A DNA stretch of 64,000 nucleotides from Nannocystis bainbridge (GCF_028368995.1 NZ_JAQNDL010000002.1:256001-320000), one strand, 5' to 3'. Counted from the stretch's first letter, positions 1 to 63,779 are shown. A program made the numbers and translations. The notes: generated by a model from the sequence alone, not told the origin.

Positions 1-713
1 AGCGGGCGCAGCACTTCACGGCGGCGGGCAAGGTGTTCGAGCTCGAGGCGAGCCCGTCCGGAGAGCGGGTGGCGGTGCGCAGCGCGCTGGGTGTCGAGCT
101 GCTGGCCATCGCTAGCGGCGAGGTGACGCCGGTGGTGAAGGAGGCGAGCCCGCTGGAGCCCGCCGCGCTGAACGCCGGGGCGCTGGCGTGGAGCCCCGAC
201 AGCGCTCAGCTGGCGGTGCTGAAGCCGGTCGACGGCGCGCTCGAGCTGACGCGCTGGGACGTGACCGGGCCGCCGCGAGCGGTCGCGCGACATGTCCTGA
301 AGGACAGCCCCGGGCGGCCGCGCAACCGGGTCGCGTTCACGCCGTCGGGCGCGTCGCTGGTGCTGACCGACCGCCACGAGTCGCTGATGCAGGTCGCCGC
401 CGACGGCGCGACGCGGCGGATCGCCACGCCGGAGCTGGCGAAGTTCGCCATGCGCAGCGAGACCGGGGCGCTCGGGCTCGATTTCCGCGGCGGACCGTCG
501 ATGATCGACTTCGCGGCGGGCGAGGGGTCGCCGCTGACGCCGAACACGGAGCTCGGCGCCTCGACGAACCCGCCCATCGTCCGCGCCGCCGACGGGACGG
601 TGTGGGCCTGCGACGCGCTCGGACCGGGCACCCTGCTGCGCTCGGCGCCGTATGCCGGCGAGACGCCGCAGGCGGTGCGCGAGCGGATCGCGGAGCTCGC
701 GGCGGCGCTGTGA
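1..713 (+). CDS. Beta-propeller (WD40/TolB-like) protein, 5' end probably outside the window
   Basis: Frame is open back to the window edge; LAWSPDSAQLAV and VAFTPSGASLVL propeller-blade motifs. Confidence 0.6.
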   Translation, partial: RAQHFTAAGKVFELEASPSGERVAVRSALGVELLAIASGEVTPVVKEASPLEPAALNAGALAWSPDSAQLAVLKPVDGALELTRWDVTGPPRAVARHVLKDSPGRPRNRVAFTPSGASLVLTDRHESLMQVAADGATRRIATPELAKFAMRSETGALGLDFRGGPSMIDFAAGEGSPLTPNTELGASTNPPIVRAADGTVWACDALGPGTLLRSAPYAGETPQAVRERIAELAAAL

Positions 714-881
714 GTAGCGACCGCGGCGCGCTCGCACGGGCGGCTCGTCCGCCTCCGAGGGGCCGCGGCTTCGCAGCCGGGCGGGCGGTCGCGGCGGTTT
801 TGCGGTAGCCTGCGCAGGTGCGAGACAGCCAGCCCGTTCCGGCCGCGGAGGCGTCGTGCGCGGAGGCGCGGAGGCTCGAAG

Positions 882-958
882 GGACATGTCTTGAGGGACA
901 TGTTATTTCCATGCGCGAATGGACATGTCGATGCGGACATGTCCGAAAGACCATGGAT
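882..958. repeat. 14-bp phased TGTCC-N4-GGACA array (6 cores)
   Basis: CATG cores at 885, 899, 910, 924, 938, 952 (14-bp spacing with one 11-bp slip), directly upstream of the TfuA gene. Confidence 0.8.
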
Positions 959-978
959 GGTACCGCCGGGAGGGCGGC

Positions 979-2286
979 ATGAGCGGACTTGTCGTGTTCC
1001 TCGGGCCGACGCTGACGAGCGGCGAGGCGTCGCTGCACACGACGGCCAACCTCTTGCCGCCGGCGCGGCTCGGCGATGTCTATGACGCGGTGACGCGGCA
1101 GGGCGCGCGGGCGATCGGGCTGGTCGACGGGCTTTTCAACTCGGTGCCGGCGGTGTGGCACAAGGAGCTCCTGTTCGCGCTGTCGCGCGGGGTGCGGGTG
1201 TTCGGTGCCGCGAGCATGGGGGCGCTGCGGGCGGCCGAGCTGCACCCGTTCGGCATGGAGGGCGTCGGCGCGGTGTTCGAGGCGTTCGCGCGCGGCGAGC
1301 TGACCGACGACGACGAGGTCGCCGTGGCCCACGGCGCGGCGGAGTCGGGCTTCCGGCCGCTGTCGGAGGCGCTGGTCAACCTGCGCCACGGGCTCGACAT
1401 GGCCGAAAAGGCAGGCTCGATCTCGGCGGCGACGGCGGGCCGGCTGCTCGCGCACGCCAAGGCCACCTTCTACGCCGACCGCTCGTGGCCGGCGCTGTTT
1501 CGGGCGGCGCCGGGGCTCGGCGTCGACGAGGACGAGCTGGTCGGGCTGCGGGCGCTGATCGGCCGGGTCCGGCCCAACCGCAAGCGCGACGACGCGATCG
1601 CGCTGCTGCGGGCGATGACCGAGGCGGGCGGCGAGGCGATGCCGCCGCACGTGGCGAAATTCGAGTTCGAGGCGACCAGCTTCTGGGAGGCGATGATCGC
1701 CACGACGGCGCGCAGCGAGGCGAGCGCGCCGCGCGACGAGGCGCTGGCGCTGCACGGATTGCTGTCGCCGGGCGGCGAGGAGCGCGGGCGCGGGGCGCTG
1801 CTGCTGGCGCTGGCGCTGCAGGAGGCGGAGCGCCGCGGGATCGAGGTCGACGGCGCGGGGATGAGCGCGGCCGCCGAGCGGATCCGCCGGGCCCTGGGGC
1901 TGCGGGACAAGCTGGCCATGGGGACATGGCTCAAAGAACAGGGGCTCGATCTGGCGGGGTCGCAGGCGCTGCTGCGGGCCGAGGCGATCGTCGACGCGCT
2001 CGGGCGCGAGCAGGCGCTGGCGGTGCGCAGCCTGGTGATCCTCGAGCTGCAGCGACGCGGCGAGCTCGGGCGCGCGCGCGAGCAGCTGGCGGCGACGGGC
2101 GAGGTCGGCTGGTCAGAGTCGGGGCTGCCCCGCGAGGCGCTGCTGCAGTGGTACGAGCGCGAGGTCCGCTGGCTCGGCGCCGACCTGCCGGCGGCGCTGC
2201 GCTCGCTGGGGCTGACGACGCTCGACCAACTGCTGACGGCGGTGGCACGGGTCAAGGCGACATTGGCCGGGTCGCGCGCGCCCTGA
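979..2286 (+). CDS. tfuA: TfuA-like protein (partner of YcaO thioamide synthases) with C-terminal helical extension
   Basis: VVFLGPTL, PPARLGDV, IGLVDGLF..VPAVWHKELLFAL, VFGAASMGALRAAEL..FGMEGVG and DDDEVAVAH match the TfuA core; GGGAGG RBS before ATG 979. Confidence 0.88.
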   Translation: MSGLVVFLGPTLTSGEASLHTTANLLPPARLGDVYDAVTRQGARAIGLVDGLFNSVPAVWHKELLFALSRGVRVFGAASMGALRAAELHPFGMEGVGAVFEAFARGELTDDDEVAVAHGAAESGFRPLSEALVNLRHGLDMAEKAGSISAATAGRLLAHAKATFYADRSWPALFRAAPGLGVDEDELVGLRALIGRVRPNRKRDDAIALLRAMTEAGGEAMPPHVAKFEFEATSFWEAMIATTARSEASAPRDEALALHGLLSPGGEERGRGALLLALALQEAERRGIEVDGAGMSAAAERIRRALGLRDKLAMGTWLKEQGLDLAGSQALLRAEAIVDALGREQALAVRSLVILELQRRGELGRAREQLAATGEVGWSESGLPREALLQWYEREVRWLGADLPAALRSLGLTTLDQLLTAVARVKATLAGSRAP

Positions 2287-2699: not shown

Positions 2700-4901
2700 G
2701 TGCGGCAACCGTCTCGTGGTCTTCGCTTCCTCGTCTTCGCGCTGGCGACTTCCTCCGCCGACATCGCCGCCGCGGCCGGACCTCCGCTGCACGAGCCGTT
2801 CCGCGTCATGACCTACAACGTCCGCAAGATCACCGACGAGGATCCCGGCGACTATGCCTGGAGCGAGCGCAGCCCCGGCGTGATGGCGCTGATCGAGGGC
2901 AACGGCCCGGACGTGTTCGGCGTGCAGGAGGCGAGCGATCCGGTGATTCAGGGCGACCTGGTGGCTGCCTTCGATGCCACTCACGATCGCTTTCATCCGC
3001 CCAACGGCAGCCCCAAGATCATCTTCTTTCGCCGCGGTCGCTTCGAGCGGCTGATCGATCCGCCCGAGGACGGGCAGGGCAACATCGGCATCCCGAACCC
3101 GTACGCCGAGGATCACGCGTGTCACCCGAACGCCAGCGGGAGGACGGCCGCGTGGGTCAAGCTGCGCGATCTGGTTTCGGGCCGCGGGTATCTGATCGTC
3201 AACGCCCACGTGGCTCACGGGGCAGGTTGCTGGCTGGCGCGTAATGCCGCCGCCGAGGCGCTCCACGCCCTCGTGGCGGCGCAGGGGCAGGGGCTGACCG
3301 TCGTCCTCATCGGCGACCTCAACTCCGATCCGCAGCGCCAGGGCGCGGGCGACGACGACGACATCGTGCCGCTGCTCGAGGCGCCGCAGGCCGGCTACGC
3401 GCTCGCTCGGTCGGCGCGCTACTCGGGCACGACCTCCGAGGACACCGCGACCTTCAACAGCTCGTGGAAGGCGCCGAGCAGCTCGTACACGCGGCTCGAC
3501 TACGTCTTCACCAGCGTCGAGGACGCGACCGCGTATCACCCGAGCATCGATCGCAGCGAGTACGGTGGCATCTCGCCGTCGGACCATTTCGCGGTGCTGG
3601 CGACGATCCGCACGGCGCCGTTCGCCCCGGCGCCGCGGAGCGACGATCGCGGCGACGGCGAGGGCGCGCGGCTTTATTTCGCGGACGTGAACGGCGACGG
3701 GGCGGCGGACAAGATCGGGTGGGATCCGGCGCAGGGAGGGGTGCGCGTGCACCTCAACGACGGCGCGGCCAACTTCGGCGCGGCGATCGCCGGCGCGAGC
3801 GCGACCGCCGAAACGACCCTGTCGTTCGCCGATGTCGACGGTGACGGCTGCGCCGATCGCATCGACTGGAGCCCGGCGGTCGAGGCCGGGCGCACGCGGA
3901 TCGCCCGCTCGCAGTGCGATGGGACGTTCGCGGCGGCGGCGACTTCCAACGACGGCAGCGCGCAGGCGGGGACGCGGCTGACGTTCGCGCGGCTCGACGC
4001 CGACGCGTGCGCCGACCGGATCGCCTGGGATCCGGGCGGTGACGGGCAGACGCGCGCGGCGCTGTCGCGCTGCGACGGGCAGTTCGCCGACGAGGTTCTC
4101 GGCGACGACGCCGGCATCAGTCAGAACCCCGACGCGCAGCTGGGCTTCGCCGACCTGACGGGCGACTGGCTGGCCGACAAGATCGTGTGGGACCCGGAGG
4201 CGAACGAGGGCCGCACGCGCGTGTTCGCCGGCGACGGCGACGGGACTTTCACGTTCCACAGCGAGCACGCGGCCGGGACCAGCGGCGTGGCGGCGTCGCG
4301 GTTCTTCTACGGCGACGTCGACGGCGACGGCCACGCCGACAAGCTGTTCTGGCGCGCCTCGTTCCGCGAGGGGCGCCCGCAGCTCTACTACGGGCATGCG
4401 GACGGGTTCGATCCGCACCCGACGATGGTCAACGCCGGGCCGAGCGAGTCCTCGGCCAACCGGTTCTTGCTCGCCGATGTCGACGGCAGCGGCTCGGTCG
4501 ATCTGATCGCGTGGGACCCGTCCGTGGACGGGGCGACGCGGGCCTACCTGGCGCTGGTCCACGCGCCTGAGAGCGAGCAGCCCGAGCCGACGACCGGCGG
4601 CGAGGAGGGGACGACCTCGACGTCGGGCGAGGAGAGCGGGACTTCGACGACGAGCTCGGGCGAGGCGCCGACGAGCTCGGGCGAGGAGACGACGGGCGGC
4701 GGCGCGGGCGAGGCGAGCTCGGGGCCGGCGAGCGCGAGCGACGGCGGGACGCCGGCTGATGGGGCCGAAGAGGGTTGCGGGTGCGTCGGCGATCCTCGCG
4801 GCGACGGTCGAGGCGCGCTGGTGATGCTGGTGGCGGCGCTCGGGCTGCGGCGGCGCCGGAGGACGCAGCGTTCCGGCGGCGCCTCGGCGTCGGGCCGATA
4901 A
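2700..4901 (+). CDS. Secreted endonuclease/exonuclease/phosphatase (EEP) protein with FG-GAP/VCBS repeats and MYXO-CTERM anchor
   Basis: Signal peptide; VMTYNVR, DVFGVQE, LIGDLNS, RLDYVF and SDHFAV EEP motifs; six FADVxGDGxADxIxW-type repeats; Ser/Thr/Gly linker; GCGC..hydrophobic..RRRRR tail. Confidence 0.88.
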   Translation: MRQPSRGLRFLVFALATSSADIAAAAGPPLHEPFRVMTYNVRKITDEDPGDYAWSERSPGVMALIEGNGPDVFGVQEASDPVIQGDLVAAFDATHDRFHPPNGSPKIIFFRRGRFERLIDPPEDGQGNIGIPNPYAEDHACHPNASGRTAAWVKLRDLVSGRGYLIVNAHVAHGAGCWLARNAAAEALHALVAAQGQGLTVVLIGDLNSDPQRQGAGDDDDIVPLLEAPQAGYALARSARYSGTTSEDTATFNSSWKAPSSSYTRLDYVFTSVEDATAYHPSIDRSEYGGISPSDHFAVLATIRTAPFAPAPRSDDRGDGEGARLYFADVNGDGAADKIGWDPAQGGVRVHLNDGAANFGAAIAGASATAETTLSFADVDGDGCADRIDWSPAVEAGRTRIARSQCDGTFAAAATSNDGSAQAGTRLTFARLDADACADRIAWDPGGDGQTRAALSRCDGQFADEVLGDDAGISQNPDAQLGFADLTGDWLADKIVWDPEANEGRTRVFAGDGDGTFTFHSEHAAGTSGVAASRFFYGDVDGDGHADKLFWRASFREGRPQLYYGHADGFDPHPTMVNAGPSESSANRFLLADVDGSGSVDLIAWDPSVDGATRAYLALVHAPESEQPEPTTGGEEGTTSTSGEESGTSTTSSGEAPTSSGEETTGGGAGEASSGPASASDGGTPADGAEEGCGCVGDPRGDGRGALVMLVAALGLRRRRRTQRSGGASASGR

Positions 4902-5051: not shown

Positions 5052-5159
5052 CGACATGACGTATGGGACATGCCCCCAAGGACATGGCCTCGAGGACATG
5101 CCCTCGAGGACGTGTCCTCGGAGTCATGTCCGGAAGGACATGGCCGAACGGGCACCTAC
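5052..5159. repeat. 14-bp phased TGTCC-N4-GGACA array (8 cores)
   Basis: Cores at 5055, 5069, 5083, 5097, 5111, 5125, 5139, 5153, between convergent genes. Confidence 0.9.
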
Positions 5160-11158: not shown

Positions 11159-11266
11159 GTTCATGGCGGAAAAGACATGTGCGTGAGGACATGTTCGATG
11201 GACCATGGCGGTTCATGCATGTCCGGAGAGGCATGTCCGAAGGGGCATGGCTGACAGGACACGCGA
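11159..11266. repeat. 14-bp phased TGTCC-N4-GGACA array (8 cores)
   Basis: Cores at 11162, 11176, 11190, 11204, 11218, 11232, 11246, 11260; an extra pair at 11298/11312. Confidence 0.9.
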
Positions 11267-14980: not shown

Positions 14981-15012
14981 AATGGCCCGAAGGACATGTC
15001 CTTCGGGCCATT
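14981..15012. terminator. 32-bp perfect palindrome, probable bidirectional terminator built from the 14-bp motif
   Basis: AATGGCCCGAAGGACATGTCCTTCGGGCCATT, flanked by an A-rich left side and GTTTATT on the right, between convergent genes. Confidence 0.7.
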
Positions 15013-22493: not shown

Positions 22494-22786
22494 GCCTCGA
22501 AAGTTAGCGCCGGCGCGTGGGGGTCGAGCCGGACCTGACGGCGGACGTGGCGGGCGACACCGGCGCGCTGTGCTGCCGGTCGTGGCGGGCGAAGCGTCGG
22601 CCGCGAGTGGTCGCCGGATCGGTCTCCGCCGGTCGCGCCGGGCGCGAGGGCGCGCTTATGTCCCGAGAGACAGGTTCCGGTGCTGCGCGCGAGGTCAAGC
22701 GCCTGTCCCGATGGACATGTGACGGAGCGCGCGCCGGCGCTGTGAGCGAGGTTGAGCGCCTGTCCCGAGGGACAGGTGAGGTGGGC

Positions 22787-23893: not shown

Positions 23894-25351
23894 TCAGGGG
23901 CGCGGCGGGGCCGGCAAGATCCACGGGCGAGGGCCCAGGCCGTCGACCTCGCGCGCGAGGTCGACGTCGGGGTCGACGAGGCGCGCGGCGGGGCGGCCGT
24001 TGTAGGTGACGAACACGTCGGCGCGGACCTCGGCGCCGGGGTTCTCGGCCGCGATGTGGTGCGCGTACTCGAGGACCATGTCGGGCTGGAAGGCCATCTG
24101 CTTGGCCTGCTGGGCGGTCAGGGTCGGCTCCGGATCGACGAGGCGCTGGCGGCCGCTGACGGGGTCGCGCACGCGGTAGACGACGCTGCCGACCTTCTCG
24201 ACCAGCATGACCTGCCAGGCGAAGCGATAGCCCTCCTCGGTCCAGGCGGTGTCGCCGGGGTAGGCGAAGCGGCGCAGCGGCAGGGTGAGCTGCACGGCGA
24301 AGTGGAGCGCGAGCAGGCCGAGCAGCAGCGGCCGGGCCGGGAACGAGCTGGCGGATAGGACAGGTGCCATGGGGCATGTCCTCGGGGACAGGCGACACCA
24401 CAGCCGCCGCGGCCAGTCGGGCGGGAAGAACACCAGGGCGGCGGCGGCCATGAGCCACGGGAACATGCCGATCGCGGGGAACAGGGCGCCGGTGAGGCCG
24501 TGGAACACGAGCACGCCGGCGTAGGCGAACGGGCGCGTGCGCGGGTGCAGCAGCAGGAACGGGACCGAGAGGTCGAAGGCGGCGCCGCCCCAGCTCATGA
24601 GGTGGGCGGCCTCGGGCCGGCGCAAGAGCCCGCCGATCAGCGGGAAGTCGGCGCGCGCGGCCAGCCACAGCCGCAGCGGCTGGGCGTGCAGCAGCCAGTC
24701 GGGGCGCAGCTTGGCCAGCCCGGCGAAGAAGTAGACCAGCCCGACCTGCAGCCGCAGCGCCCACAACGCCCAGGCCGGGGCGACGGCGACGCGACGGCCG
24801 AGCGGGAGCACGATCATCAGCAGGGCGACGACGCTGACGAAGTAGTAGTGGTTGAGGTAGGTCGCCTTGTCGAGCAGTTCGACGTAGGTGAAGAGGACGA
24901 AGAACAGGGCGATCGCGGGCCGGTAGCACACGCCCGCGGCGACGAGCAGCGACAGCGCGCCGAGGGCGACGAACACGGCGATCATGCCGGCCTCGGGCAG
25001 CGGTGCGAGCCAGCCGAAGCCCCAGTAGTGGAAGTGGAAGGTCGGGTCGACGTACAGCTGGTGGATCCACCCGCGCGCGGCGAAGCGGACCGTGCCGGCG
25101 AACATCAGCAGGCCAAAGGCGATCCGGAACGCGTGGAGGCCGGCGGCGTCGACCGGGGCGAGCAGGGCGCGCAGGAGGCGGCTGAGGGCGCCATGGCCAT
25201 CATCTGCCCGAATCGACATGTCTATTGGGACACGTTCTACCGGCGCGTCCTGCTCGTCATCTGTCCGAAGCGACATGTCGCAGGGGACATGTTCATCGTG
25301 CGGCCGGCCGACCGCGGGCGGGCTGCGGTCCGGGGGGGCGCGGTCGGGCAT
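23894..25351 (-). CDS. HTTM domain / vitamin K-dependent gamma-carboxylase-like membrane protein
   Basis: FRIAFGLLM, FHFHYWGF, LDKATYLNHYY, VYFFAGLAKLRPDWL, IGMFP, WTEEGYRFAWQVMLVEK. Confidence 0.88.
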   Translation of the reverse strand: MPDRAPPDRSPPAVGRPHDEHVPCDMSLRTDDEQDAPVERVPIDMSIRADDGHGALSRLLRALLAPVDAAGLHAFRIAFGLLMFAGTVRFAARGWIHQLYVDPTFHFHYWGFGWLAPLPEAGMIAVFVALGALSLLVAAGVCYRPAIALFFVLFTYVELLDKATYLNHYYFVSVVALLMIVLPLGRRVAVAPAWALWALRLQVGLVYFFAGLAKLRPDWLLHAQPLRLWLAARADFPLIGGLLRRPEAAHLMSWGGAAFDLSVPFLLLHPRTRPFAYAGVLVFHGLTGALFPAIGMFPWLMAAAALVFFPPDWPRRLWCRLSPRTCPMAPVLSASSFPARPLLLGLLALHFAVQLTLPLRRFAYPGDTAWTEEGYRFAWQVMLVEKVGSVVYRVRDPVSGRQRLVDPEPTLTAQQAKQMAFQPDMVLEYAHHIAAENPGAEVRADVFVTYNGRPAARLVDPDVDLAREVDGLGPRPWILPAPPRP

Positions 25352-25361
25352 TTCGCTCGGG

Positions 25362-26599: not shown

Positions 26600-26665
26600 A
26601 GGCATGTCCTCGCGGACATGTCCTTTCGCGCCGGGCCTCGGGGACATGTGCGAAGGGGCAGGCGG
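26600..26665. repeat. 14-bp phased TGTCC-N4-GGACA array (5 cores)
   Basis: Cores at 26603, 26617, 26631, 26645, 26659, inside the operon spacer. Confidence 0.75.
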
Positions 26666-30092: not shown

Positions 30093-31177
30093 GGGTCCTG
30101 GTCGTCACGACGACCTTCCCGCAATGGGCCGGCGATCCGCGCGGCCGCTTCATCCTGCGTCACTGGGAGGCGCGCGCGGCGGCCGGCGACACGGTCAGAT
30201 TTCTGGTGCCGCGGACGGCGTGGGTCCGCGGCGCGCTGCCGTCGCCGTGCGAGGTGGTCCGCTTCGCCTACGCGCCGACCGGCATGTCGTCGCTGACCGG
30301 CCAGTTCGGCATCCTCGAGAACATCCGCGATCGGCCGTGGCGGGCGCTGCTGGTGCTGCCGTTCGTGGCCGCGCTGCAGCGGGCGCTGCAGCGCGAGATC
30401 CGGGCGTTTCGCCCCGACAAGGTCGCGGCCCACATGCTGCTGCCGTGCGGCTGGCTGGCGGCCGAGGCGGCCCGCGCGGCCCGGGTGCCGTGCGAGCTGT
30501 ACGGCCACGGCACCGATGTCGACCTGCTGCTGCGCCTGCCCGGACCGCTGCGCGAGGCGGCCCTGACGGCGCTGGGGCAGGCCGAGAGCGTCGCCCTGCC
30601 GTCGGCCGAGAAGCTGGCCCGGGTGGCCGCGGCCTGGCCGGGTCCGCCGCCGCTGCGCATCGAGACGATGGTCGGCAGCGTGGCCGATGGGGCAGGTTCC
30701 AACGCACATGTCTATCAGGACATGTCCGAACGCGCAGGCGACGAGGTGCTGTTCCTCGGGCGCCTGATCAAGCAGAAGGGCGTCGACGATCTGCTGCGGG
30801 CGGCGGCGCTGATGCCCCGGCGGCCGCGCCTGGCGATCGCCGGCGACGGGCCGGAGCGGCGCCGACTGCAAGGCATGGCGGAAGGGCTGCGGCTCGACGC
30901 GCGCTTCCACGGGTTCGTCGAGGGCGCGGCCAAGGAGGCGCTGTACCGGCGAGCTGCGCTGCTGTGCGTGCCGTCGCGCGAGATCGGCGGGCTGTCCGAG
31001 GGGGCGCCGCTGGTGATCGCCGAGGCCAAGCGCTACGGGCTGCCGGTGGTGGCGACGGCCGTGGGCGGGATCCCCGAGCTGATGCGCGACCTGTATCCCG
31101 AGACCGCCCTGGTCCGGCCCGGAGCGCCGCAGGCGTTGGCGCAAGCGCTGGCGCAGGCGCTCGCACAGGGGGCCTGA
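30089..31177 (+). CDS. Glycosyltransferase family 4
   Basis: GTGA overlap with the upstream gene; HGTDV, LFLGRLIKQKG, EGAPLVIAEA..GLPVVATAVGGIPE. Confidence 0.88.
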   Translation: MRVLVVTTTFPQWAGDPRGRFILRHWEARAAAGDTVRFLVPRTAWVRGALPSPCEVVRFAYAPTGMSSLTGQFGILENIRDRPWRALLVLPFVAALQRALQREIRAFRPDKVAAHMLLPCGWLAAEAARAARVPCELYGHGTDVDLLLRLPGPLREAALTALGQAESVALPSAEKLARVAAAWPGPPPLRIETMVGSVADGAGSNAHVYQDMSERAGDEVLFLGRLIKQKGVDDLLRAAALMPRRPRLAIAGDGPERRRLQGMAEGLRLDARFHGFVEGAAKEALYRRAALLCVPSREIGGLSEGAPLVIAEAKRYGLPVVATAVGGIPELMRDLYPETALVRPGAPQALAQALAQALAQGA

Positions 31178-36832: not shown

Positions 36833-37018
36833 GCCGCGTATCACGGGGCGCGACGGCGCGCAACGGGGGGGCGACGGGGCTGAGGGGCCGCAGGAGCCCG
36901 CTGGCGGCGAGATCGGGCCGCGCCCGGGATGGTCGGCACGAGTCGGCGAAGGCGGGGCGAGTGGCCCGAGCCGGGACGGTCGCGGGCACCGACGAGTCAG
37001 GACGTGGACTGTCGTTAG

Positions 37019-37159
37019 GGACATGTCCTTTGGGGCATGCTCAGCGAGACATGGCTGTGAGGACATGTCCGGAAGGGCATGTCATTACGAAAGAACAGGC
37101 CCTTCGCGGCGGTGGCCGCGAGGACCTGTCTGGAAGGGCATGTCCACAAGGACACGCTC
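37019..37159. repeat. 14-bp phased TGTCC-N4-GGACA array (5+3 cores)
   Basis: Cores at 37022, 37036, 37050, 37064, 37078 and 37125, 37139, 37153. Confidence 0.9.
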
Positions 37160-39496: not shown

Positions 39497-40723
39497 TCAG
39501 GCCCGCGGGAAAGTGCTGCTTTCTGCAACGACGTCGGCCAGCAGGTCGGCGACGGTGTGCGCCTCTTCCACGGTGAGGCACAGCGGCGGGCAGATGAATA
39601 AAAGATTGTCGCGGTACGGGACGTAGGCGCCGCGCTCGAGCAGGCGAGCGGCCAGCGGGGCGGCGGGGCGGTCGAGCTCGAGGCAGCGCATCAGGCCGAG
39701 GCCGCGGCTGTCGCGGACGGCGCCGCGCAGGGATGGCTTTTGGGACATGTCCTGAAAGCGCTCCGCGAACACGCCACCGACCTGGTCGGCGTTCTCGGGC
39801 AGGCGCTGCTCGGCGTAGACCTCGAGCGCGCCGAGAGCGGCCGCGCAGCCGACCGGGTGGGCGTAGTGGGTGACGCCGCACCATAACTTGTGGTCGTCGA
39901 AGTGAGCGGCGACCTTCGCGGAGGCCATGACTGCGGACAGCGGGGCGTAGCCGCTGGTGAGGCCCTTGCCGAGCACCATGAGGTCGGGCTGCACGCCCCA
40001 GTGCTCGCGCGCGAACCACCGGCCGGTGCGGCCGAAGCCGCTGAAGATCTCGTCGTCGACGAGCAGGATGCCGTGGCGGTCGCACACCGAGCGCACCGCG
40101 GGCCAGAAGTCGGGCGGCGGGGGCTGCATGCCGTTGGTGCCGGTGAAGCCCTCGAGCACGATCGCGGCGATGGTCTCGGGGCCCTCGCGCTCGACGACCT
40201 CGTGCAGGCTCTGGGCCCACGCCGAGGGCTCGCCGGCGGGCGCGGGGTACGGGTCGTCGATGTGGATCGCGGGCGCGAGGTCGGCGGCGAACGGGGCGCG
40301 GCGCGGGTCGCCGGCGATGCCGAGCGTCGCCAGGGTGGCGCCGTGGTAGCTGCGGCGGCGCGTGACGATCTTGCTGCGGCCGGTGTAGAGGCGGGCGATC
40401 TTGATCGCGTTCTCGACCGCCTCGGCGCCGCCGGAGGCGAGGAAGGCCCGGGCGAGGCCGGTGCGCTCGGCCAGCGCGGCGGTGAGCTGCTCGCGGACCT
40501 CGAGGCGCATGTTGGGCCCGGCGACCGGGAGCTCGCGGATCTGGGCGATCATCCGCTCCTGAATGTGGCGCACGCCGTGGCCGGCGTTGACGTTGTAGGT
40601 CTGGCTCTCGAGGTCCCACAACCAGCCGTGCTCGCGGGTGCGGAAGCGGGCGCCCTCGGCGGCGTCGACGGTGAGCGGGTGGGCGTTTCGCTGGGCGGAC
40701 CAGGTGTAGAAGATATGGCTCAT
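39497..40723 (-). CDS. Class III PLP-dependent aminotransferase (omega-amino acid type)
   Basis: GGAEAVENA, SYHGAT, DDEIFSGFGRTG, PDLMVLGKGLTSGY; ATGA overlap with the C45 gene. Confidence 0.92.
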   Translation of the reverse strand: MSHIFYTWSAQRNAHPLTVDAAEGARFRTREHGWLWDLESQTYNVNAGHGVRHIQERMIAQIRELPVAGPNMRLEVREQLTAALAERTGLARAFLASGGAEAVENAIKIARLYTGRSKIVTRRRSYHGATLATLGIAGDPRRAPFAADLAPAIHIDDPYPAPAGEPSAWAQSLHEVVEREGPETIAAIVLEGFTGTNGMQPPPPDFWPAVRSVCDRHGILLVDDEIFSGFGRTGRWFAREHWGVQPDLMVLGKGLTSGYAPLSAVMASAKVAAHFDDHKLWCGVTHYAHPVGCAAALGALEVYAEQRLPENADQVGGVFAERFQDMSQKPSLRGAVRDSRGLGLMRCLELDRPAAPLAARLLERGAYVPYRDNLLFICPPLCLTVEEAHTVADLLADVVAESSTFPRA

Positions 40724-45913: not shown

Positions 45914-47132
45914 CGGCCACGCGCTCGGCGTCGTCCTCGCGCAGGGCCGGGTCGACGTCGGCGTCCGGGTCGTCGGCCTCGTCGTCGTCGATCTCGGCGG
46001 TCTCGGGGGCACGCGCCGCGAGCTCGGCCACGGCCGGGCGCAGGGTCAGCAGGCCGAGGTGGCCGGGCACGACCGCGAGGCCGAGGGCGAGCTGCTCGGC
46101 GGCGGCGGCCGCGTCCTCGCGCTCCAGCGCGTCGCGCACGGCGGCCTCCTGGGCGGCGGCGAACATCGGGTTGTGGGTCAGGGCGGCGGCGGCGAGGGCG
46201 GCTCGCTCGGCGTCGGCCTTGGCGTCCTGGCGCGAGAGACCTGGCTTTTCGGGCATGTCCTTCGGGGCCTGCTCCGAAGGACCGGGCGCTTCGGACATGT
46301 CCTTAGGAGCCTGTCCCGAAGGACCTGGCCTTTCGGACTTGCCCGAGAGGGCGAGGCAGGCGAGCGCCAGGCAGTGGGCGCGCAGGCCGGGCTCGGTGGC
46401 CCGCTCGGCGGCCTTGCGGAAGGCGGCGACGGCGTCGCCGAGCTTGCCCTCGCCCTGGCGGACGCGGCCGAGCTCGAGGTGGCCCCACACGAACTCGGGG
46501 GCGCGGCGCAGCAGCTGGCGCAGCTCCTGGGCCGCGCCGCGCAGCTCGCCGGCGCGGCGCAGCGACTGGGCCAGGCGGAACCGGGCCAGCGGGGCGTCGG
46601 GGTCGAGGTCGAGGTGGCGGCGCAGCAGCCGGCGCTCGGCCGCGGGGGTGAGCTCACCGTCGTCGCCGAACAGGTCGGACTGGTACTCGCCGTCCTCGTC
46701 GAACAGGACCGAGAACTCGCCGAGCAGGGCCAGGACCAAACGGTCGATCGAGGAGGCGCACGGCAGACGCTCGCCGTCCTCCTCGACGAGCACGACGTCG
46801 GCGCCCTCGGCGTGCGGGTCGGCGACGAGGACCAGGAGGTCGCGCCCGCGCTCGCCGATGACGCGGTCGCCGGGGCGCAACCGGCCGTCCTCGGCGGCGG
46901 CCTCGGTGGCGCCGGCGTGGTCGGCGAGCGGGTAGAGGCGAGCCTCGCCGCCTGCGAGATCGAGGCCGTCGTAGGTGCCCCACAGCAGGGCGAGGTCGGG
47001 ATCGATGCCGGAGGCCGCGAGGGCCTGCTCGCTGGCGGGGCCGCCGACGTCGTGGAGACCTTCGGGAGCGTCGCGCAGGCGGTCCTCGATGCGGTCGAGG
47101 TTGTTCAGGACGCGCCGGCGCTCCTCGCTCAT
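45798..47132 (-). CDS. SMI1/KNR4-like N-terminal domain plus TPR protein
   Basis: PASEQAL..LW.TYDG.DL..LYPL pattern; TPR helices; acidic tail; GGAGG RBS. Confidence 0.65.
   Translation of the reverse strand: MSEERRRVLNNLDRIEDRLRDAPEGLHDVGGPASEQALAASGIDPDLALLWGTYDGLDLAGGEARLYPLADHAGATEAAAEDGRLRPGDRVIGERGRDLLVLVADPHAEGADVVLVEEDGERLPCASSIDRLVLALLGEFSVLFDEDGEYQSDLFGDDGELTPAAERRLLRRHLDLDPDAPLARFRLAQSLRRAGELRGAAQELRQLLRRAPEFVWGHLELGRVRQGEGKLGDAVAAFRKAAERATEPGLRAHCLALACLALSGKSERPGPSGQAPKDMSEAPGPSEQAPKDMPEKPGLSRQDAKADAERAALAAAALTHNPMFAAAQEAAVRDALEREDAAAAAEQLALGLAVVPGHLGLLTLRPAVAELAARAPETAEIDDDEADDPDADVDPALREDDAERVAARAAPEPDTGSASSPYGGQKPARSSGDRRSRRPARSRG
46237..46344. repeat. Intragenic 14-bp phased array (8 cores)
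   Basis: Cores at 46240, 46254, 46268, 46282, 46296, 46310, 46324, 46338. Confidence 0.85.
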
Positions 47133-49955: not shown

Positions 49956-50078
49956 GGCGCTCGCACGAAGATTGACATAGGTCTCTTGGGACATGTCCCG
50001 AGAGTCCTATGTCGATTGTCGCTCGACCCCGGTGAATGGCCGGGGCGAGTGCGGACTCTTGGGGATGTCAGGCGCCGA

Positions 50079-52831: not shown

Positions 52832-52989
52832 GGGGATGTCCTTGCGGACATGCTCGGTAGAGCGTGTCCGGAAAGGGCGGCGATGCGGGGCGACGAAGGC
52901 GGCCCCATGCGGCATGGTCCAAGGGACATGCTCGCGGGGACAGGGCCTTTGCGGCATGTCGCACAGGACATGCCGCAAAGGTCAGGCCG
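52832..52989. repeat. 14-bp phased TGTCC-N4-GGACA array (3+6 cores)
   Basis: Cores at 52835, 52849, 52863 and 52913, 52927, 52941, 52955, 52969, 52983. Confidence 0.85.
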
Positions 52990-54179: not shown

Positions 54180-54268
54180 GCGCGCAGGATACCCCGCGCG
54201 GCGGAGGGGCGGCAACGCTGGCGCGAGCGCGGCGAATTGCGGGCGCTCATACGCGGGACGGCTTGCTT

Positions 54269-55108: not shown

Positions 55109-55276
55109 GCGGGCGCCGGCAGGCTAAGGCGGCGAGCGCGAGCTTTCAAGCGCGCGCGGGAGGGCGGAAGGGCCGCAGGGCGGCGGCGAACCCCGACCAA
55201 GGTCGGGTCCGCCGGCGCGTGCGTCGAGCGCCGCGGCCCGGGCGAGGCCGCGCGTTCGCGGTATGCTGCGCGGCGC

Positions 55277-56944: not shown

Positions 56945-56973
56945 GACAGGCAGGGCAAAAACGGAGATCGATC

Positions 56974-57243: not shown

Positions 57244-57276
57244 GGCGAGGCGCGGCGGAGGCCCAGCCGCGCGGCG

Positions 57277-57906
57277 TCACAGGGCGAAGACTTCGAGGTT
57301 GTCGAAGAACACCCGGGCCTCCCAGCCGCCGAAGGCGAAGTGGCGCTGGGCGGGGCCGCTGAGCGGCTCGGGGTCGTCGTAGCGGAGGGCCTCCTGGCCG
57401 TCGAGCTCCCAGGTGATGCCGCCGTCGCGGCGGGTGACGGCGAAGTGGTAGCGCTTGCCGGCCTCGACCTTGAGCGCCTGGGTGGTCTTGCGATCGCCGC
57501 CGTGCTCGTCGCGGCGGACGATGGCGCTGGTGGTGTTGTTCCAGCCGCCGAAGATGACGACGTAACCAGTGGCGGTGTAGCTGGCGCTGCGGGCGAAGCT
57601 CTTGCCGTCGCCGGCGAGCTCGATCTTGATGTCACCCTCGTCGGTGGCGGCGCGGGCGTCGAACTCGATGCGCACGTTGTCGGGCAGCGGGAGGGTCAGC
57701 CAGAGCGGGTGGTTGCGCAGGCCCTCGATGACGAGCTCGCCAGCCTCGATGCGAGCGCCGGGGCCGGTCGATTTCCAGGAGTCGCCGAGCTCGGGGCCGT
57801 CGAAGCGGTCGGCGAACAGGAGCTGGGCGGGGCCGGCGCTGCTGTAGGTGCGGGGCAGCTCCTCGCAGGCGAGCAAGAGCAGGGCGAGGGGGGCGAGGCG
57901 GCGCAT
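57277..57906 (-). CDS. Lipoprotein with ConA/lectin-like beta-sandwich
   Basis: LLAC lipobox; LFADRF..W, RIEFDA, VFFDNLEV. Confidence 0.7.
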   Translation of the reverse strand: MRRLAPLALLLLACEELPRTYSSAGPAQLLFADRFDGPELGDSWKSTGPGARIEAGELVIEGLRNHPLWLTLPLPDNVRIEFDARAATDEGDIKIELAGDGKSFARSASYTATGYVVIFGGWNNTTSAIVRRDEHGGDRKTTQALKVEAGKRYHFAVTRRDGGITWELDGQEALRYDDPEPLSGPAQRHFAFGGWEARVFFDNLEVFAL

Positions 57907-57914
57907 GGCGAGAG

Positions 57915-57966
57915 GGACAGGTCCGATAGGCAAGGTCGAAAGGGACATGTGCGAAGCGCCAGGTCA
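57915..57966. repeat. 14-bp phased array (4 cores)
   Basis: Cores at 57918, 57932, 57946, 57960, filling the kinase-lipoprotein spacer. Confidence 0.7.
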
Positions 57967-59310: not shown

Positions 59311-59381
59311 GGGGACGGGGGAGGGGGCCGGAGGGACAGGTCGCGGGGGCTGATGACAGGGTCGAAGAGATGGGTTCTTTG

Positions 59382-59475
59382 GGGAATGTACTCGGGGACA
59401 GGTTCTTCGGGGCATGTCCTTATGGATATGGCCGTTGGGAAATGTCCTCGGGGACATGTCCTCGGGGACACCGGT
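59382..59475. repeat. 14-bp phased TGTCC-N4-GGACA array (7 cores)
   Basis: Cores at 59385, 59399, 59413, 59427, 59441, 59455, 59469. Confidence 0.88.
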
Positions 59476-60815: not shown

Positions 60816-60969
60816 GCAGCGCCCATGCTAACACGCCGGGACCCGGACGCCGCAGGGCGCCGTCTGCGGGCCCGCGGCGCCCGGCAGCGAGGCTTTCGCG
60901 CGCGCCAGGCCAGGCCGGGAGTCGAGGCCGTAGATGGCCCGCAGGGGAGCGGCTACACTGCCGGTCCCG

Positions 60970-62580
60970 ATGCCCGCCCTGCTCGAGCCGATCGCCGCCG
61001 GCCAGACGCGCTTTCATCTCCAGGGTCTGGCGCCGGACGCTCGCGGGGTGGCGTGCGGGCGCGAGACGCTGGTGGCGTTCCCGTCGCTCGACCGCCTGGT
61101 GGCGTTCCTCGGCGCGTACAGCGAGGAGTGCAGCCTCGACGAGCTGATCCCGACGATGACGATCGAGCGGGCCCGCCGCGAGGGCGGCGGTCATGCGCTG
61201 CTGATGCGCTGCGCCGGCACCGACAGCTACGCGCTCGATCGCCTGGGCCGGCTGTCGCTGGCGGTCCACGGCCAGCTGTTCACCGGCAGCGGCACCGTGT
61301 TCGTCCGCTACCGCGACCGCATGGCCCCGTTCGGCTACGACCTCGCGGGCAGTACGACCACGGCCGCGAGCCCTGAAGAGGTGCTGGTGGTCGATTTCGA
61401 CGTCGCGGCGCGCTACCGCGCCCTCGATCGGCTCGACCCGGTCGAGCTGATCCAGCGCCTGTCGCTGCGCCAGATCCCGCTGCCGCTGGCCGGCATCGCC
61501 TCCGACCCGCAGCTGTGCGGGCTGCACGAGATCGCCCTGGTGCTGGTGGCACCTGGCCTTTCGGACAGGGTCCTGAGCTACCTGTGGAGCAACCAGGTGC
61601 CGCTCGCGGGGGTCCGCGTGGCCCTCGCCGGCGAGCGCCGGGCCAGCCTGCTGGTGCGGCTGCGCCAGCCGAGCGGGCAGGTGCTCGACGTGCTGCACGG
61701 GATCCCGGGGGTCGAGCTGCTGGCGCCGGTGTCGCAGCGGGCGGCGGTCGAGATCGGGTACCGCCACCCGATCCACCTGGCGTCGGCGTCTTCGTGCCTG
61801 CCGGGCGACGAGATGTACCTGTTCCGCGGGCGCGTCGGCCGGGTCGAGCGGCTCGACGGGGCGCCGCAATTCATCGACGGGGCCCACCTGGTGCGCAGCG
61901 AGACGGCGGCGCGGGTCCACGAGCCGGGCGACGCCCGCGGGACCGCGGTGCAGGCCCTCAAGGTCGAGCTGCGGCTGCGGCCGACGGCGTCGATCCGCGA
62001 GCCGCGGGGGGCGCTGATCCGCTGGGAGCAGGCGGGCCTGCTGCGGCGCCTCATCTACCTGATCCCGCCGATGGCGCTGGCGGCGGCCCGGCTGGCGGTG
62101 CTGCCTCAAGGGATGCTGGTGCTGACCGGGTCGTCGCTCGGCGGCGCGGCCGGGCTGGCGGCAGGGGTCGGGGCGGCGGCGATCATCCCGCTGGGGATGC
62201 GCATCGTCGAGGTCGCGCCGGGGGTGCTGGTGCCCGACGGGTTCGAGCTGTGGCCGCACGTGCGCCCGCAGCTGGTGCGCGAGCTGCTGGGGCTCGAGGC
62301 GGCCGACCACGCGCTGTTCCTCGGCACCGAACAGAGCCCGCTGCGCCTGCGGCCCGATCACCTGGCGCCGCTCGACGCGGCGATGATGAGCCGGCTCGAG
62401 CTGGCGGTGATCGAGGCGAGCCCGTCGGAGACGCCGACTTCGGGCCCGGCGACGCTGCAGAACGAGCGGCTCGGGCGCTTCGCGCTGTGGGGCTTCGGCG
62501 AGGCGGGCCGCGGCGGGCGAGCCGTCGCGGTCGAGGAGCCGAGCGAGACGCCGGAGCTGCCGCCGGGGCGAGAGTCGTGA
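60970..62580 (+). CDS. Hypothetical protein, probable ternary (MoxR/vWA, FtsH-type) conflict-system component
   Basis: Coding-like ORF, first gene of a coupled operon leading to MoxR; likeness to FtsH-ternary X domains is from recall only. Confidence 0.6.
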   Translation: MPALLEPIAAGQTRFHLQGLAPDARGVACGRETLVAFPSLDRLVAFLGAYSEECSLDELIPTMTIERARREGGGHALLMRCAGTDSYALDRLGRLSLAVHGQLFTGSGTVFVRYRDRMAPFGYDLAGSTTTAASPEEVLVVDFDVAARYRALDRLDPVELIQRLSLRQIPLPLAGIASDPQLCGLHEIALVLVAPGLSDRVLSYLWSNQVPLAGVRVALAGERRASLLVRLRQPSGQVLDVLHGIPGVELLAPVSQRAAVEIGYRHPIHLASASSCLPGDEMYLFRGRVGRVERLDGAPQFIDGAHLVRSETAARVHEPGDARGTAVQALKVELRLRPTASIREPRGALIRWEQAGLLRRLIYLIPPMALAAARLAVLPQGMLVLTGSSLGGAAGLAAGVGAAAIIPLGMRIVEVAPGVLVPDGFELWPHVRPQLVRELLGLEAADHALFLGTEQSPLRLRPDHLAPLDAAMMSRLELAVIEASPSETPTSGPATLQNERLGRFALWGFGEAGRGGRAVAVEEPSETPELPPGRES

Positions 62581-63779
62581 CCCGGGACCTCGGCGAGTTC
62601 TGTGCCCGCTTCGTGGCGCCGCTGCTCGGCGGCGGGACGGTGCACGTGGCCGCGCCGGTGCGGCCGGCCGACTTCCGGGCGATGACCGGCGGGCTGGCGA
62701 CGCTGCGCAGCGGCGAGGTCGCGGCGCTCCGGCTGCAGCGCGCGCAGCAGCTGGTGGCCGAGCCCGACCTGCAGGAGCCCGGGGCCGAGGAGCTGGCGCT
62801 GTGGGTGGCGCTCTACAACCTGCTCGTGCTCGACCACCCCGACCGCAGCCGCGTGTGGGCGCGCCAGGCGACGTGGCGCCGGGTCGAGTCGGCCGCCCGC
62901 TACTGGCTGCTGTTCAGCCGGCCCGAGGGCTTCTCGGCGGCGCTGGCCAACCACGCGGCGGTGGGGGCCTTCTTGGAGCTGGCGCGCCGCGATCAGATCC
63001 TGAGCGGGGCCGAGGGCGAGCTGCGCTTCGTCGGTCAGGAGATCCCGCGTCGGCGCCTGCGCTGGACGGTCCCCGGCGCGCTGTCGGTGCGCGAGGAGAC
63101 GGTGACCTGGTGGTCGACCGCGCACGTGGCCGAGGTGTCGGCGCTGCAACAAGATGTCCTTTGGGCCAGCCCCGTGACGTGCCTGCTGCGGCCGCTCATG
63201 GCCCCGCCCGGCTACAGCCCGCTCGAAGGCGCGAGCTTCCTGCGCCACCGCGCGTTCGCCCGCGCGGTCTGCCACGCGTGGGCGTCGTCGCGGCACTGGA
63301 TCGAGATCGGCGGGACCGTGCTCGGCTCGCTGCTGTTCTCGCTGACCGGCCGCCCGCTGTCGGGGCCGACGCCGAGCTCGGGGGCCACGGGCGCGGCGTC
63401 CGCGGGCCGGCCGATGCTGGCCCTGCCGGCGCCCGTCGACACCGCCGGGCCCGAGGACGTCGCGGCCCTGGTCGCCGCCCTCATCCACGTCCATTTCCTC
63501 CGCGTGCTCGAGCTGGGCGCCCGGCTCGGCGTCGCGCCCACCAGCCGCGACCGCCCGGTGCAGATGTTCCTGGCCCTGCCGCTGCTGCTGCCCGCGCTGG
63601 GCGAGGTCCTCGGCTCTCCGCTCGGCGGCGCGGCCGAAGGCCTCGGCTTCGACGCGCAAGTGGAGCGGCGCTGGATCGAGTATATCGATCATCTCGGCGA
63701 GCTCATCCCGCGCTCGGTCGTCGAAAATCTCCTGGCGACGCTCGTCCCGCGCGTCGTAAAAGCCGAAACAGAGCCATGA
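62577..63779 (+). CDS. Hypothetical protein, probable ternary conflict-system component
   Basis: GTGA overlap with the upstream gene and ATGA overlap with MoxR; FCARFVAPLLGGG, LYNLLVLDHP. Confidence 0.6.
   Translation: MTRDLGEFCARFVAPLLGGGTVHVAAPVRPADFRAMTGGLATLRSGEVAALRLQRAQQLVAEPDLQEPGAEELALWVALYNLLVLDHPDRSRVWARQATWRRVESAARYWLLFSRPEGFSAALANHAAVGAFLELARRDQILSGAEGELRFVGQEIPRRRLRWTVPGALSVREETVTWWSTAHVAEVSALQQDVLWASPVTCLLRPLMAPPGYSPLEGASFLRHRAFARAVCHAWASSRHWIEIGGTVLGSLLFSLTGRPLSGPTPSSGATGAASAGRPMLALPAPVDTAGPEDVAALVAALIHVHFLRVLELGARLGVAPTSRDRPVQMFLALPLLLPALGEVLGSPLGGAAEGLGFDAQVERRWIEYIDHLGELIPRSVVENLLATLVPRVVKAETEP

Follow-up and report, generated by a model that had tools for sequence, protein, structure and literature searches.

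REP elements are short, dispersed, imperfect palindromes of 20-40 nt with a GTAG/GGAG-type 5' tag, and in BIMEs they form regular arrays. The Rickettsia palindromic elements (RPEs) are single in-frame insertions of about 100-150 bp in protein-coding genes, where they yield extra peptide segments. The DUS of Neisseria and the USS of Haemophilus occur about once per kb, in permissive reading frames and weakly conserved protein segments, and as inverted pairs after genes. Fur boxes, MetJ metboxes and the plasmid omega heptads are short, abutting symmetric or repeated sites at a fixed offset, on which successive dimers are aligned. HIP1 (GCGATCGC) of the cyanobacteria is over-represented 15-300 fold genome-wide and is reported to be conserved by selection within and between ORFs, with a possibly nucleoid-related function (PMC5861425). 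REPIN/RAYT systems are reported to be vertically inherited and long-persisting (PMC3116915, 10.1101/2021.07.10.451892).

In a 64-kb window of the Nannocystis bainbridge genome (64,000 nucleotides, the whole stretch of DNA that was analysed), a 14-bp inverted repeat recurs in phased tandem arrays. A preliminary description held that no described element matches it. This stands for the exact motif, for which the literature searched contained no matching repeat family, but the behaviour of the repeat is close to that of REP/BIME, HIP1 and RPE. As with the REP/BIME/REPIN elements of Enterobacteria and Pseudomonas, short imperfect palindromes are dispersed after genes and between operon genes and form regular arrays; those elements reach hundreds to thousands of copies, and 54 clusters lie in the 64 kb studied here. 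The Nannocystis unit, however, is 14 bp long and not 20-40 bp, has no GTAG-type tag, and abuts its neighbours with CATG shared between them. REP elements are strictly extragenic, whereas 21 hairpins, 13 cores and an array of eight units in a TPR-protein gene are found here in coding sequence (CDS). These CDS copies, the 14-bp unit and the absence of a tetranucleotide tag do not fit membership of the REP/BIME family.

The repeat resembles HIP1, which occurs about once per gene, in being a hyper-abundant, lineage-wide palindrome kept inside and between ORFs, as reported for HIP1 (PMC5861425). It is a different word: HIP1, a compact 8-mer, is not known to be chained in phased tandem arrays, whereas the Nannocystis word is divided (5-N4-5), belongs to a different phylum and is strongly enriched downstream of genes, and GCGATCGC is only modestly enriched in these loci. 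HIP1 has cognate orphan methyltransferases; we know of none for the Nannocystis word. The likeness to DUS/USS is one of genomic pattern alone (about one copy per kb, a favoured frame, variable protein segments), and DUS/USS differ in being asymmetric and are not known to form phased tandem arrays. Abutting symmetric sites at a fixed offset recall the Fur, MetJ and omega operator arrays, but those lie at a few promoters, whereas the 64 kb studied here have about 54 such places, most of them not near promoters.

The repeat unit and its abundance

The base unit is TGTCC-N4-GGACA, and its extended form is C[A/C]TGTCC-YNNR-GGACA[T/G]G. With at most one mismatch the base unit (hairpin) occurs 59 times in the window versus 1.29 expected, and the maximum across 100 dinucleotide shuffles was 6. 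The gap between the half-sites is exact, N4 giving the 59 matches, N3 only 4 and N5 only 1. Among 149 hairpins, the outer spacer positions are Y..R in 75 and R..Y in 6, and the central step is RY in only 8. The spacer is dyad-symmetric, with an A+T content of 47% versus 27% across the window. Beside TGTCC the flank consensus of the 149 hairpins is C[A/C] only, and past the 14-18-bp unit no conserved sequence was found other than the next unit, which does not fit a MITE (a 50-500-bp unit with terminal inverted repeats).

In the arrays, abutting units create the palindrome GGACATGTCC at every junction, with CATG common to neighbouring units. This core is present in the window 14 times exactly, 37 times with at most one mismatch and 85 times with at most two; the corresponding means over 200 dinucleotide shuffles were 0.025, 1.69 and 24.7. 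Pairs of cores (at most two mismatches) at exactly 14-bp spacing number 25 versus a shuffle mean of 0.005 over 200 dinucleotide shuffles, and 11 pairs each are spaced at 28 and 42 bp; no pair in the window is spaced at 13 or 15 bp. As with HIP1, a palindromic word is over-represented: by composition 0.05 copies of GGACATGTCC are expected (14 observed) and 0.36 of GACATGTC (22 observed), the latter being the top palindromic 8-mer in all four Nannocystis sequences. The word occurs both intergenically and inside genes, at a unit density of about one per kb. Enrichment in CDS persists against 200 synonymous-codon shuffles in which protein sequence and codon usage were held constant: 21 hairpins were observed versus 2.84±1.49, and 13 cores (at most one mismatch) versus 5.89±1.80. 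The motif arrays reported in the preliminary description are therefore real, their counts exceeding both the dinucleotide-shuffle and the codon-shuffle nulls.

Placement and growth of the arrays

Hairpins or cores with at most one mismatch form 54 clusters between positions 288 and 63168. These match all 9 long arrays and all 26 short clusters reported earlier, and 13 clusters are new. Twenty-six are intergenic (18 in tandem, 5 in convergent and 3 in divergent spacers), some such positions being actually 5' coding sequence (e.g. 26435) because gene starts are GC3-based calls; 25 lie in CDS and 3 at gene edges. The principal intergenic sites are:

882-905 and 921-958: two out-of-phase blocks of 2-3 units each, between ORF 3-713 (+) and the TfuA-like gene 994-2286 (+)
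5052..5159: 8-unit 14-bp-phased array (TRF: period 14, 3.9 copies) in a convergent spacer, with 2808-4901 (+) on one side and the Ser/Thr kinase gene 5171-8182 (-) on the other
11159..11266: 8-unit degenerate array upstream of the enoyl-CoA hydratase gene, in a tandem spacer, with further hairpins at 11300-11350
14983..15010: exact core with a hairpin on each side (18-bp perfect palindrome), inside a convergent spacer of 86 bp
22659..22774: three hairpins (22659, 22704, 22761), one per 45-57-bp repeat unit, downstream of 22787-23518 (-)
25214..25294: hairpins both at and before the start of the HTTM gene; in relatives, 54-66-bp repeats with one hairpin each have expanded the orthologous spacer
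26600..26665: array of 4-5 units beginning 15 bp past the stop of the di-haem oxidoreductase gene; its position and phase are kept in four species, and the remaining spacer is full of indels
37010..37159: two out-of-phase blocks (5 + 4 units) from 11 bp after the Zn-dehydrogenase gene stop, flanking a G+C-rich perfect hairpin at 37089-37121
49989..49998: one isolated exact core, 81 bp past the 50079-50783 (-) stop and lying upstream of the multihaem cytochrome gene
52832..52989: two out-of-phase blocks (3 + 6 units) that fill the convergent spacer separating 52577-52798 (+) from the TylF-like methyltransferase gene
57901..57966: degenerate array of 5 units; its 57-bp spacer runs from the kinase gene stop (57964) to the start of the next gene
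59382..59475: array of 6-7 units directly after the stop of the FHA-domain gene 59475-60635 (-)

The strict 14-bp phase originally reported holds within a block but not between blocks of the same spacer, which are out of phase (882-905 versus 921-958, 37019-37088 versus 37108-37159, 52832-52873 versus 52910-52989), and some hairpins occur one per 45-57-bp repeat (22659-22774) rather than in 14-bp phase. Placement had also been thought indifferent to gene context. Instead, the arrays prefer spacers containing a gene 3' end, as is typical of high-copy REP elements, and are 5-6 times rarer in divergent promoter spacers: per kb, cores with at most one mismatch number 3.8 (convergent spacers), 2.9 (tandem spacers), 0.58 (divergent, pure promoter spacers) and 0.24 (coding sequence). 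Hairpins occur in 12 stop-containing spacers, and in 10 of these the nearest one lies within 75 bp of a stop codon. Coding copies have one favoured frame (GAC-ATG-TCC) and lie in poorly conserved protein segments. Examples inside genes are:

24358..24395: 3 units in the HTTM/VKGC-like gene, where they fall in the variable linker that joins its two domains; aligned at the same place in L001-L004 and L018
26416..26453: degenerate 3-unit stretch encoding part of the imelysin gene signal peptide; kept in all four aligned Nannocystis sequences
30690..30727: 3 units (42 bp) in the hypervariable interdomain linker of the GT4 glycosyltransferase gene; orthologous in four species, with no net length change in alignment with distant homologues
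39743..39752: single exact core inside the class-III aminotransferase gene, in frame GAC-ATG-TCC, with no insertion relative to solved homologues
46237..46344: 8-unit array (TRF period 42) inside the TPR-protein gene 45798-47150 (-)

The TPR-gene array was inserted in frame and encodes 14-residue repeats (42 bp, or three units). In alignment it is missing from six more distant homologues, from Nannocystaceae, Pseudenhygromyxa, Enhygromyxa and unassigned Myxococcales/Deltaproteobacteria MAGs, and the Nannocystis species have either 2 or 3 repeats, the difference being exactly three units, or 14 residues. It thus behaves like the in-frame palindromic peptide segment of an RPE, but the Nannocystis repeats are chains of 14-bp units, chiefly intergenic, versus single insertions of about 100-150 bp.

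Tandem Repeats Finder (TRF) periods in the window are 14, 28 and 42 bp, and in N. pusilla there are 54- and 72-bp repeats, each with one hairpin. Unit number varies between species in orthologous 3' spacers, and units are present or absent in different species, with indels. A unit-expanding activity, offered earlier as an alternative to binding sites, thus gains some support from the in-frame TPR insertion with its three-unit difference and from the orthologous spacers, which vary in unit number and hold 54-72-bp repeats.

Lineage restriction and retention of the half-sites

The motif is specific to a lineage: it is dense in the four Nannocystis genomes (0.92-1.59 hairpins per kb), thinner in four related MAGs (0.62, 0.31, 0.23 and 0.19) and at background elsewhere (0.010 in the 65 lowest loci). 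Orthologous motif positions are common to three independently sequenced Nannocystis genomes. At family-level distance (L004), TGTCC-N4-GGACA is kept with different flanks (GGCTGTCC..GGACAGCC).

The half-sites are selectively retained. Divergence was compared among four Nannocystis species in one 21-kb syntenic region, where 2908 of 9667 intergenic alignment columns are ungapped. Mean pairwise divergence in intergenic DNA was 0.225 for half-sites, 0.368 for spacers and 0.279 for other ungapped columns; in CDS it was 0.088 for half-sites, 0.232 for spacers and 0.146 for third codon positions. Permutation gave p = 0.0002 (intergenic) and 0.0004 (CDS) for half-sites versus spacers, and 0.0036 for intergenic half-sites versus background. 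With sites chosen in a single species and divergence taken from the remaining three, half-sites still diverged less than spacers (0.191 versus 0.374, and 0.069 versus 0.200). Both in intergenic DNA and in CDS the 4-bp spacers therefore diverge about 2-3 times faster than the half-sites, whose conservation within and between ORFs is like that of HIP1 sites.

Candidate explanations

The explanation we prefer, though we would stop short of calling it probable, is a new, REP/HIP1-like family of dispersed dyad repeats, specific to Nannocystis and near relatives, read by a symmetric dimer, duplicated locally and tolerated 3' of genes and in linkers. A putative symmetric dimeric protein would read the unit sequence-specifically on duplex DNA, with one dimer per 14 bp in the arrays. 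New copies would arise mainly by local tandem duplication in 14-bp steps, in 42-bp steps where the reading frame must be kept, or by duplication of 45-72-bp segments carrying one unit apiece, and some may come from point substitution. Copies would survive where they are nearly harmless, that is, just past stops, between operon genes, and in disordered linkers and signal peptides. Because the duplex-binding model alone does not predict the 3'-side preference, such tolerance or a role at transcript ends must be added to it.

The dimeric DNA-binding protein proposed in the preliminary description remains putative, but recognition of duplex DNA agrees with the rigid gap, the dyad A/T-rich spacer, the conserved half-sites and the lack of covariation or strand asymmetry. 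Compensatory double changes were not in excess in either pairing register among 204 units, a comparison weakened by the consensus-matched choice of units: there were 8 at intra-unit position 2/7 versus 12.1 expected, and 5, none of them Watson-Crick, at inter-unit position 2 versus 7.7 expected. The loops have no purine/pyrimidine asymmetry relative to the direction of transcription. These two results point to retention of the sequence and not of a structure. The 5-N4-5 geometry resembles that of FNR/CRP-type sites, and A-TGTCC-N4-GGACA-T fits the ATGT-N8-ACAT pattern of PadR operators, a candidate lead. Any cellular role, whether in nucleoid organisation or occlusion, as a transcript-end roadblock or in self-marking, is conjectural. 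In a bolder version, which we consider quite improbable, the dyad word would be a genome-wide identity tag of the Nannocystaceae, and a dedicated dimer would polymerise on the 14-bp-phased arrays to mark gene ends or self DNA. The protein-array complexes could then be gene-end roadblocks or insulators that replace the missing T-run terminators in a 73% G+C genome or, alternatively, marks of self DNA in a predator amid prey DNA. The same system would supply proteins with new 14-residue linker modules, and it would be a chromosome-wide protein-DNA code of a kind not described in bacteria.

A true REP/REPIN-type element is unlikely. Here the single-stranded hairpin would be the substrate that a transposase, whether a domesticated Y1 (RAYT-like) enzyme or another acting on single strands, recognises and moves, and the arrays would be BIME-like. 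Such a mechanism is physically possible because single-stranded arrays give strong folds (z between -1.7 and -7.7 for 8 folds), and it fits the dispersed, high-copy distribution, the preference for spacers with gene 3' ends or within operons, and the differences in presence and absence between species, with indels. Persistence throughout a family also has a parallel in what the REPIN-RAYT reports describe (PMC3116915, 10.1101/2021.07.10.451892). Against it, the unit has only 14 bp, and many of its 5-bp arms carry mismatches without compensation; the flank consensus provides no conserved GTAG-like tag; 21 hairpins lie in CDS, where at least one copy arose without insertion; and a Pfam scan of 53 window proteins gave no match to a transposase family.

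Quite unlikely is a DUS/USS- or HIP1-like word driven by uptake, self-recognition or repair, in which molecular drive or selection for a genome-wide tag would spread the word to all tolerated places and the arrays would be by-products. The proposed drives are biased uptake with recombination, or biased repair tied to a methyltransferase at the CATG core. The density of about one per kb, the copies in CDS with their single favoured frame in poorly conserved segments, and an enrichment that outlasts the protein- and codon-matched null are all in its favour. It does not, however, predict that units should follow one another head to tail in exact 14-bp phase or that each 54-72-bp repeat should have one hairpin, and CATG (254 in the window versus 151 expected) is neither avoided nor specially enriched outside the motif.

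That the arrays act at the RNA level, as transcript hairpins that are terminators or blocks to 3' exonucleases, is very unlikely, although their closeness to stop codons and strong folding would suit such a role. In the 45000-64000 interval, hairpin plus T-run terminators number 3 versus 3.1 expected by chance, none of them at arrays; the arrays there are thus not canonical intrinsic terminators, and the need for another termination signal is a point in favour of this reading. Rfam at the gathering threshold gave no matches, which together with the lack of excess compensatory changes does not fit a structured RNA family. The absence of sense-strand bias in the loops, the many mismatched arms, and the copies inside ORFs and in divergent spacers also argue against a transcript-level role.

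Chance, codon bias or assembly artefact has practically no probability, being refuted by the shuffles (the hairpins observed outnumbered those in each of 100 dinucleotide shuffles, the counts of cores and of 14-bp pairs all exceeded the maximum of 200, and 200 codon shuffles gave at most 7 CDS hairpins versus 21) and by the orthologous copies of the motif in the three independently sequenced Nannocystis genomes.

Abundance and phase of the dyad word

The arrays in the window (G+C content 73.3%) are runs of abutting 14-bp units, laid out as the 10-mer palindromic core GGACATGTCC followed by four variable bases and repeated in rows. The core was found 14 times exactly, 37 times with ≤1 mismatch and 85 times with ≤2 mismatches, compared with means of 0.025, 1.69 and 24.7 in 200 dinucleotide-preserving shuffles. 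Cores with ≤2 mismatches were spaced at exactly 14 bp in 25 pairs (shuffle mean 0.005), at 28 bp in 11 and at 42 bp in 11, with no pairs at 13 or 15 bp; TRF identified tandem repeats with periods of 14, 28 and 42 bp. The commoner form of the motif is the inverted repeat TGTCC-N4-GGACA, here called the hairpin, in which the two half-sites enclose a four-base spacer. With ≤1 mismatch it occurs 59 times against 1.29 expected, a number reached in 0 of 100 shuffles. The arrays that the preliminary description had seen from the sequence alone are real. The spacing of the hairpin is rigid (59 hits with N4, 4 with N3 and 1 with N5), the junction form GGACA-N0-TGTCC has 37 hits, and with its flanks the half-site reads C[A/C]TGTCC.

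The window was catalogued into 54 clusters, that is, groups of hairpins or cores with ≤1 mismatch. Each of the nine long arrays and 26 short clusters first described matches a catalogued cluster, and 13 clusters are additional. The 14-bp phase, originally described as strict, is kept within a block of units but not between blocks of the same intergenic spacer, which can be out of phase. At 22659-22774, hairpins occur one per 45-57-bp repeat. G+C-rich DNA lies between array blocks at two places: a perfect hairpin at 37089-37121, 3' of a Zn-dehydrogenase gene, and a stretch at 52874-52909.

Placement relative to genes and entry into coding sequence

Genes were called from codon-position G+C and then checked against Pfam, and the density of cores was determined for each class of region.

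Density per kb of cores with ≤1 mismatch, by class of region
Spacers between convergent genes: 3.8
Spacers between tandem genes: 2.9
Spacers between divergent genes: 0.58
Within coding sequence: 0.24
Chance (shuffles): about 0.026

Twelve of the hairpin-bearing spacers contain a stop codon, and in 10 of these the nearest hairpin was ≤75 bp from it. Given these distances and the low density in divergent compared with convergent and tandem spacers, the earlier view that copies are placed regardless of context is therefore wrong for promoters. Its report of copies inside ORFs is upheld: coding sequences contain 21 hairpins versus 2.84±1.49 and 13 cores versus 5.89±1.80 under a null in which synonymous codons were shuffled while each protein and its codon usage were kept. 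Where the exact core falls in a gene, its frame is in most cases GAC-ATG-TCC.

Insertion of coding copies is clear only in the gene for a TPR protein (45798-47150, minus strand), which contains the array at 46237-46344 and is a real gene with homologues named in N. pusilla, N. exedens and N. punicea. The array is translated as 14-residue repeats, equivalent to 42 bp or three units. This segment is absent from six more distant homologues, and among Nannocystis species the number of repeats is two or three, the gap being exactly 14 residues. The family shows noncoding repeat DNA being turned into protein sequence, 14 residues per step. The motif drew the GC3-based caller to the wrong strand at this locus; its choice, a plus-strand ORF at 46059-47147, was rejected as a shadow frame, since the GC3 profiles and the homologues indicate the minus strand.

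The copies in the HTTM protein and in a glycosyltransferase (GT4) lie in a variable linker and an interdomain linker, respectively; in both cases the segment varies in all homologues, with no net length change. An imelysin copy lies in the signal peptide, with no clear length change. The aminotransferase copy falls in a gapless alignment to solved structures, so it arose by substitution. The bacterial protein encoded at 21684-22340 contains three LDL-receptor class A repeats; in one of these, D-M-S-D-E is specified by the exact core at 21903, which does not vary among the four Nannocystis sequences. It should be noted that the central CATG of the motif provides an ATG on both strands, so that mechanical ORF lists begin at the motif (at 49994, 33473, 40730 and 57948). 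Gene calling in Nannocystis is distorted by the motif, and gene starts are easily mis-set.

Conservation and distribution among relatives

In an alignment of 21 kb of orthologous DNA from four Nannocystis sequences, many sites occupy the same position in every sequence, in spacers as well as in genes, and other sites are present or absent together with indels. The array 3' of the oxidoreductase stop has the same position and phase in all four; elsewhere in this spacer, indels have scrambled the sequence.

Mean pairwise divergence in the alignment
Half-sites: intergenic 0.225; CDS 0.088
Spacers within units: intergenic 0.368; CDS 0.232
Comparison columns: other ungapped intergenic 0.279; third codon positions 0.146

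By permutation, half-sites differ from spacers in intergenic DNA (p = 0.0002) and in CDS (p = 0.0004), and intergenic half-sites differ from the intergenic background (p = 0.0036). When sites were ascertained in one species and measured in the other three, the values for half-sites versus spacers were 0.191 versus 0.374 in intergenic DNA and 0.069 versus 0.200 in CDS. The lower divergence of the half-sites shows that they are held by selection or homogenisation, with the central four bases drifting; spacer drift is seen even in genes, where neighbouring codons are free.

A search of a genome collection, with the window's di-haem oxidoreductase as query, returned 80 loci. The best matches, from Nannocystis punicea, Nannocystis sp. 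RBIL2 and N. pusilla, have 87-89% protein identity, are syntenic with the window and contain 6, 11 and 12 exact cores, respectively. Outside these three there are two exact cores in L004, a locus from a Nannocystaceae MAG, one in locus L076 and none in the other 75 loci. The three Nannocystis loci have 1.17-1.59 hairpins per kb and the window has 0.92; the density is 0.62 in L004 and 0.31, 0.23 and 0.19 in the relatives' loci L018, L006 and L007, and in the 65 lowest loci it is 0.010 (13 hits in 1.24 Mb), below the N3 and N5 controls. The sequence GACATGTC is the top-enriched palindromic 8-mer in the four Nannocystis sequences only. Therefore, the dyad word is a Nannocystis trait that extends more thinly into related lineages. 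L004 has kept the TGTCC-N4-GGACA core with different flanks (GGCTGTCC..GGACAGCC), and four copies of GGCTGTCC-N4-GGACAGCC are located at 30-60 bp intervals (4667-4818), just upstream of its oxidoreductase gene. No substitute palindrome was found in the loci of other Myxococcota, where the words that emerged, such as CGAGCTCG, were all codon-driven. The imelysin, di-haem oxidoreductase, imelysin, HTTM/VKGC-like cluster at 23894-29228 of the window is kept in this order in many Myxococcota loci.

Proposed mode of recognition and known repeat families

Pair-preserving double changes showed no excess in either pairing register among 204 units, a test weakened because the units were chosen by consensus match. 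Loops oriented by local transcription direction had no purine/pyrimidine bias, and no bias in GNRA or UUCG tetraloops was found relative to the sense strand. The unit spacer is A/T-rich (47%) and dyad-symmetric, with Y..R in 75 and R..Y in 6 of 149. The window has no Rfam matches at the gathering threshold, and within 45000-64000 no array has a hairpin-plus-T-run terminator. Together, these results point to recognition of duplex-DNA sequence by a putative symmetric reader rather than selection that maintains a hairpin in RNA or DNA. A tRNA/tmRNA search of the window found no genes.

The explanation that we tentatively place first is a new dispersed family of dyad repeats. The unit would be read on duplex DNA by a putative symmetric dimeric protein, would multiply through local tandem duplication, and copies would be retained at places where they are tolerated or useful. 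In the N. pusilla locus (L003), TRF identified 54- and 72-bp tandem repeats, each with one hairpin. At 5344-5598 of the same locus there is also a 47-bp tandem repeat (5.6 copies) with AGCTGTCCCTTCGACC, which resembles one half-site plus spacer.

A true REP/RAYT-type single-strand element is an unlikely alternative. The dyad family behaves similarly to REP, HIP1 and the Rickettsia palindromic elements, but is distinguished from them by a word split as 5-N4-5, by units joined head to tail in 14-bp phase and by steps of 42 bp within genes; the tested defining features of REP (extragenic location only, size and tag) are not found here, nor does the family have the size of a MITE. Less probable still is a word driven by uptake, self-marking or repair, as for DUS or HIP1. 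One HIP1 study describes that word as over-represented and conserved within and between ORFs (PMC5861425), two testable behaviours that the dyad family has in common with it; no CATG avoidance or restriction-type signals were detected. Transcript hairpins have a slimmer chance again: as single strands the arrays fold strongly (z -1.7 to -7.7 in eight folds), as expected of any periodic palindrome, and the family lacks the tested defining features of canonical terminators and structured RNAs. An artefact, set beside sites shared by four Nannocystis sequences, has practically no probability.

Neither the motif nor any Nannocystis or myxobacterial repeat family was found in the open-access papers searched, in which the split-motif spellings also had no matches. 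Among the matches listed for exact GGACATGTCC, about half concerned p53 response elements and none a bacterial repeat; among those listed for REPIN, RAYT and Myxococc, no paper combined a REPIN or RAYT topic with Myxococc. Genomic repeats were not a topic in the excerpts of literature on Nannocystis with palindromic or intergenic repeats, and the only match for repetitive extragenic palindromes in myxobacteria concerned natural-product screening. Few features of bacterial chromosomes are as poorly understood as hyper-abundant short repeats such as REP, HIP1 and uptake sequences, and every new family of this kind has been a sign of some dedicated protein or process. The dyad family is unusually tractable: its word has a rigid geometry, its natural arrays range from 1 to 8 units, its density forms a gradient over a family in which some members are cultured and fully sequenced, and there is evidence of selection on individual sites.

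Other features of the window are as follows.
2377-2641: 74-bp tandem repeat (3.6 copies, 100% identical) between a TfuA-like gene and the next gene; the dyad motif is absent from it
2808-4901: 697-residue protein in which an endonuclease/exonuclease/phosphatase domain is combined with FG-GAP repeats and a weak TcdB middle/N-terminal match
9619-9811: 64-bp tandem repeat (3.0 copies, 89% match) directly 3' of an ADYC-domain gene
48648-48790: tandem repeats of 21 bp (3.7 copies, 98% match) and of 54 bp, within a part of the minus-strand ORF 47551-48954 that is rich in G+C
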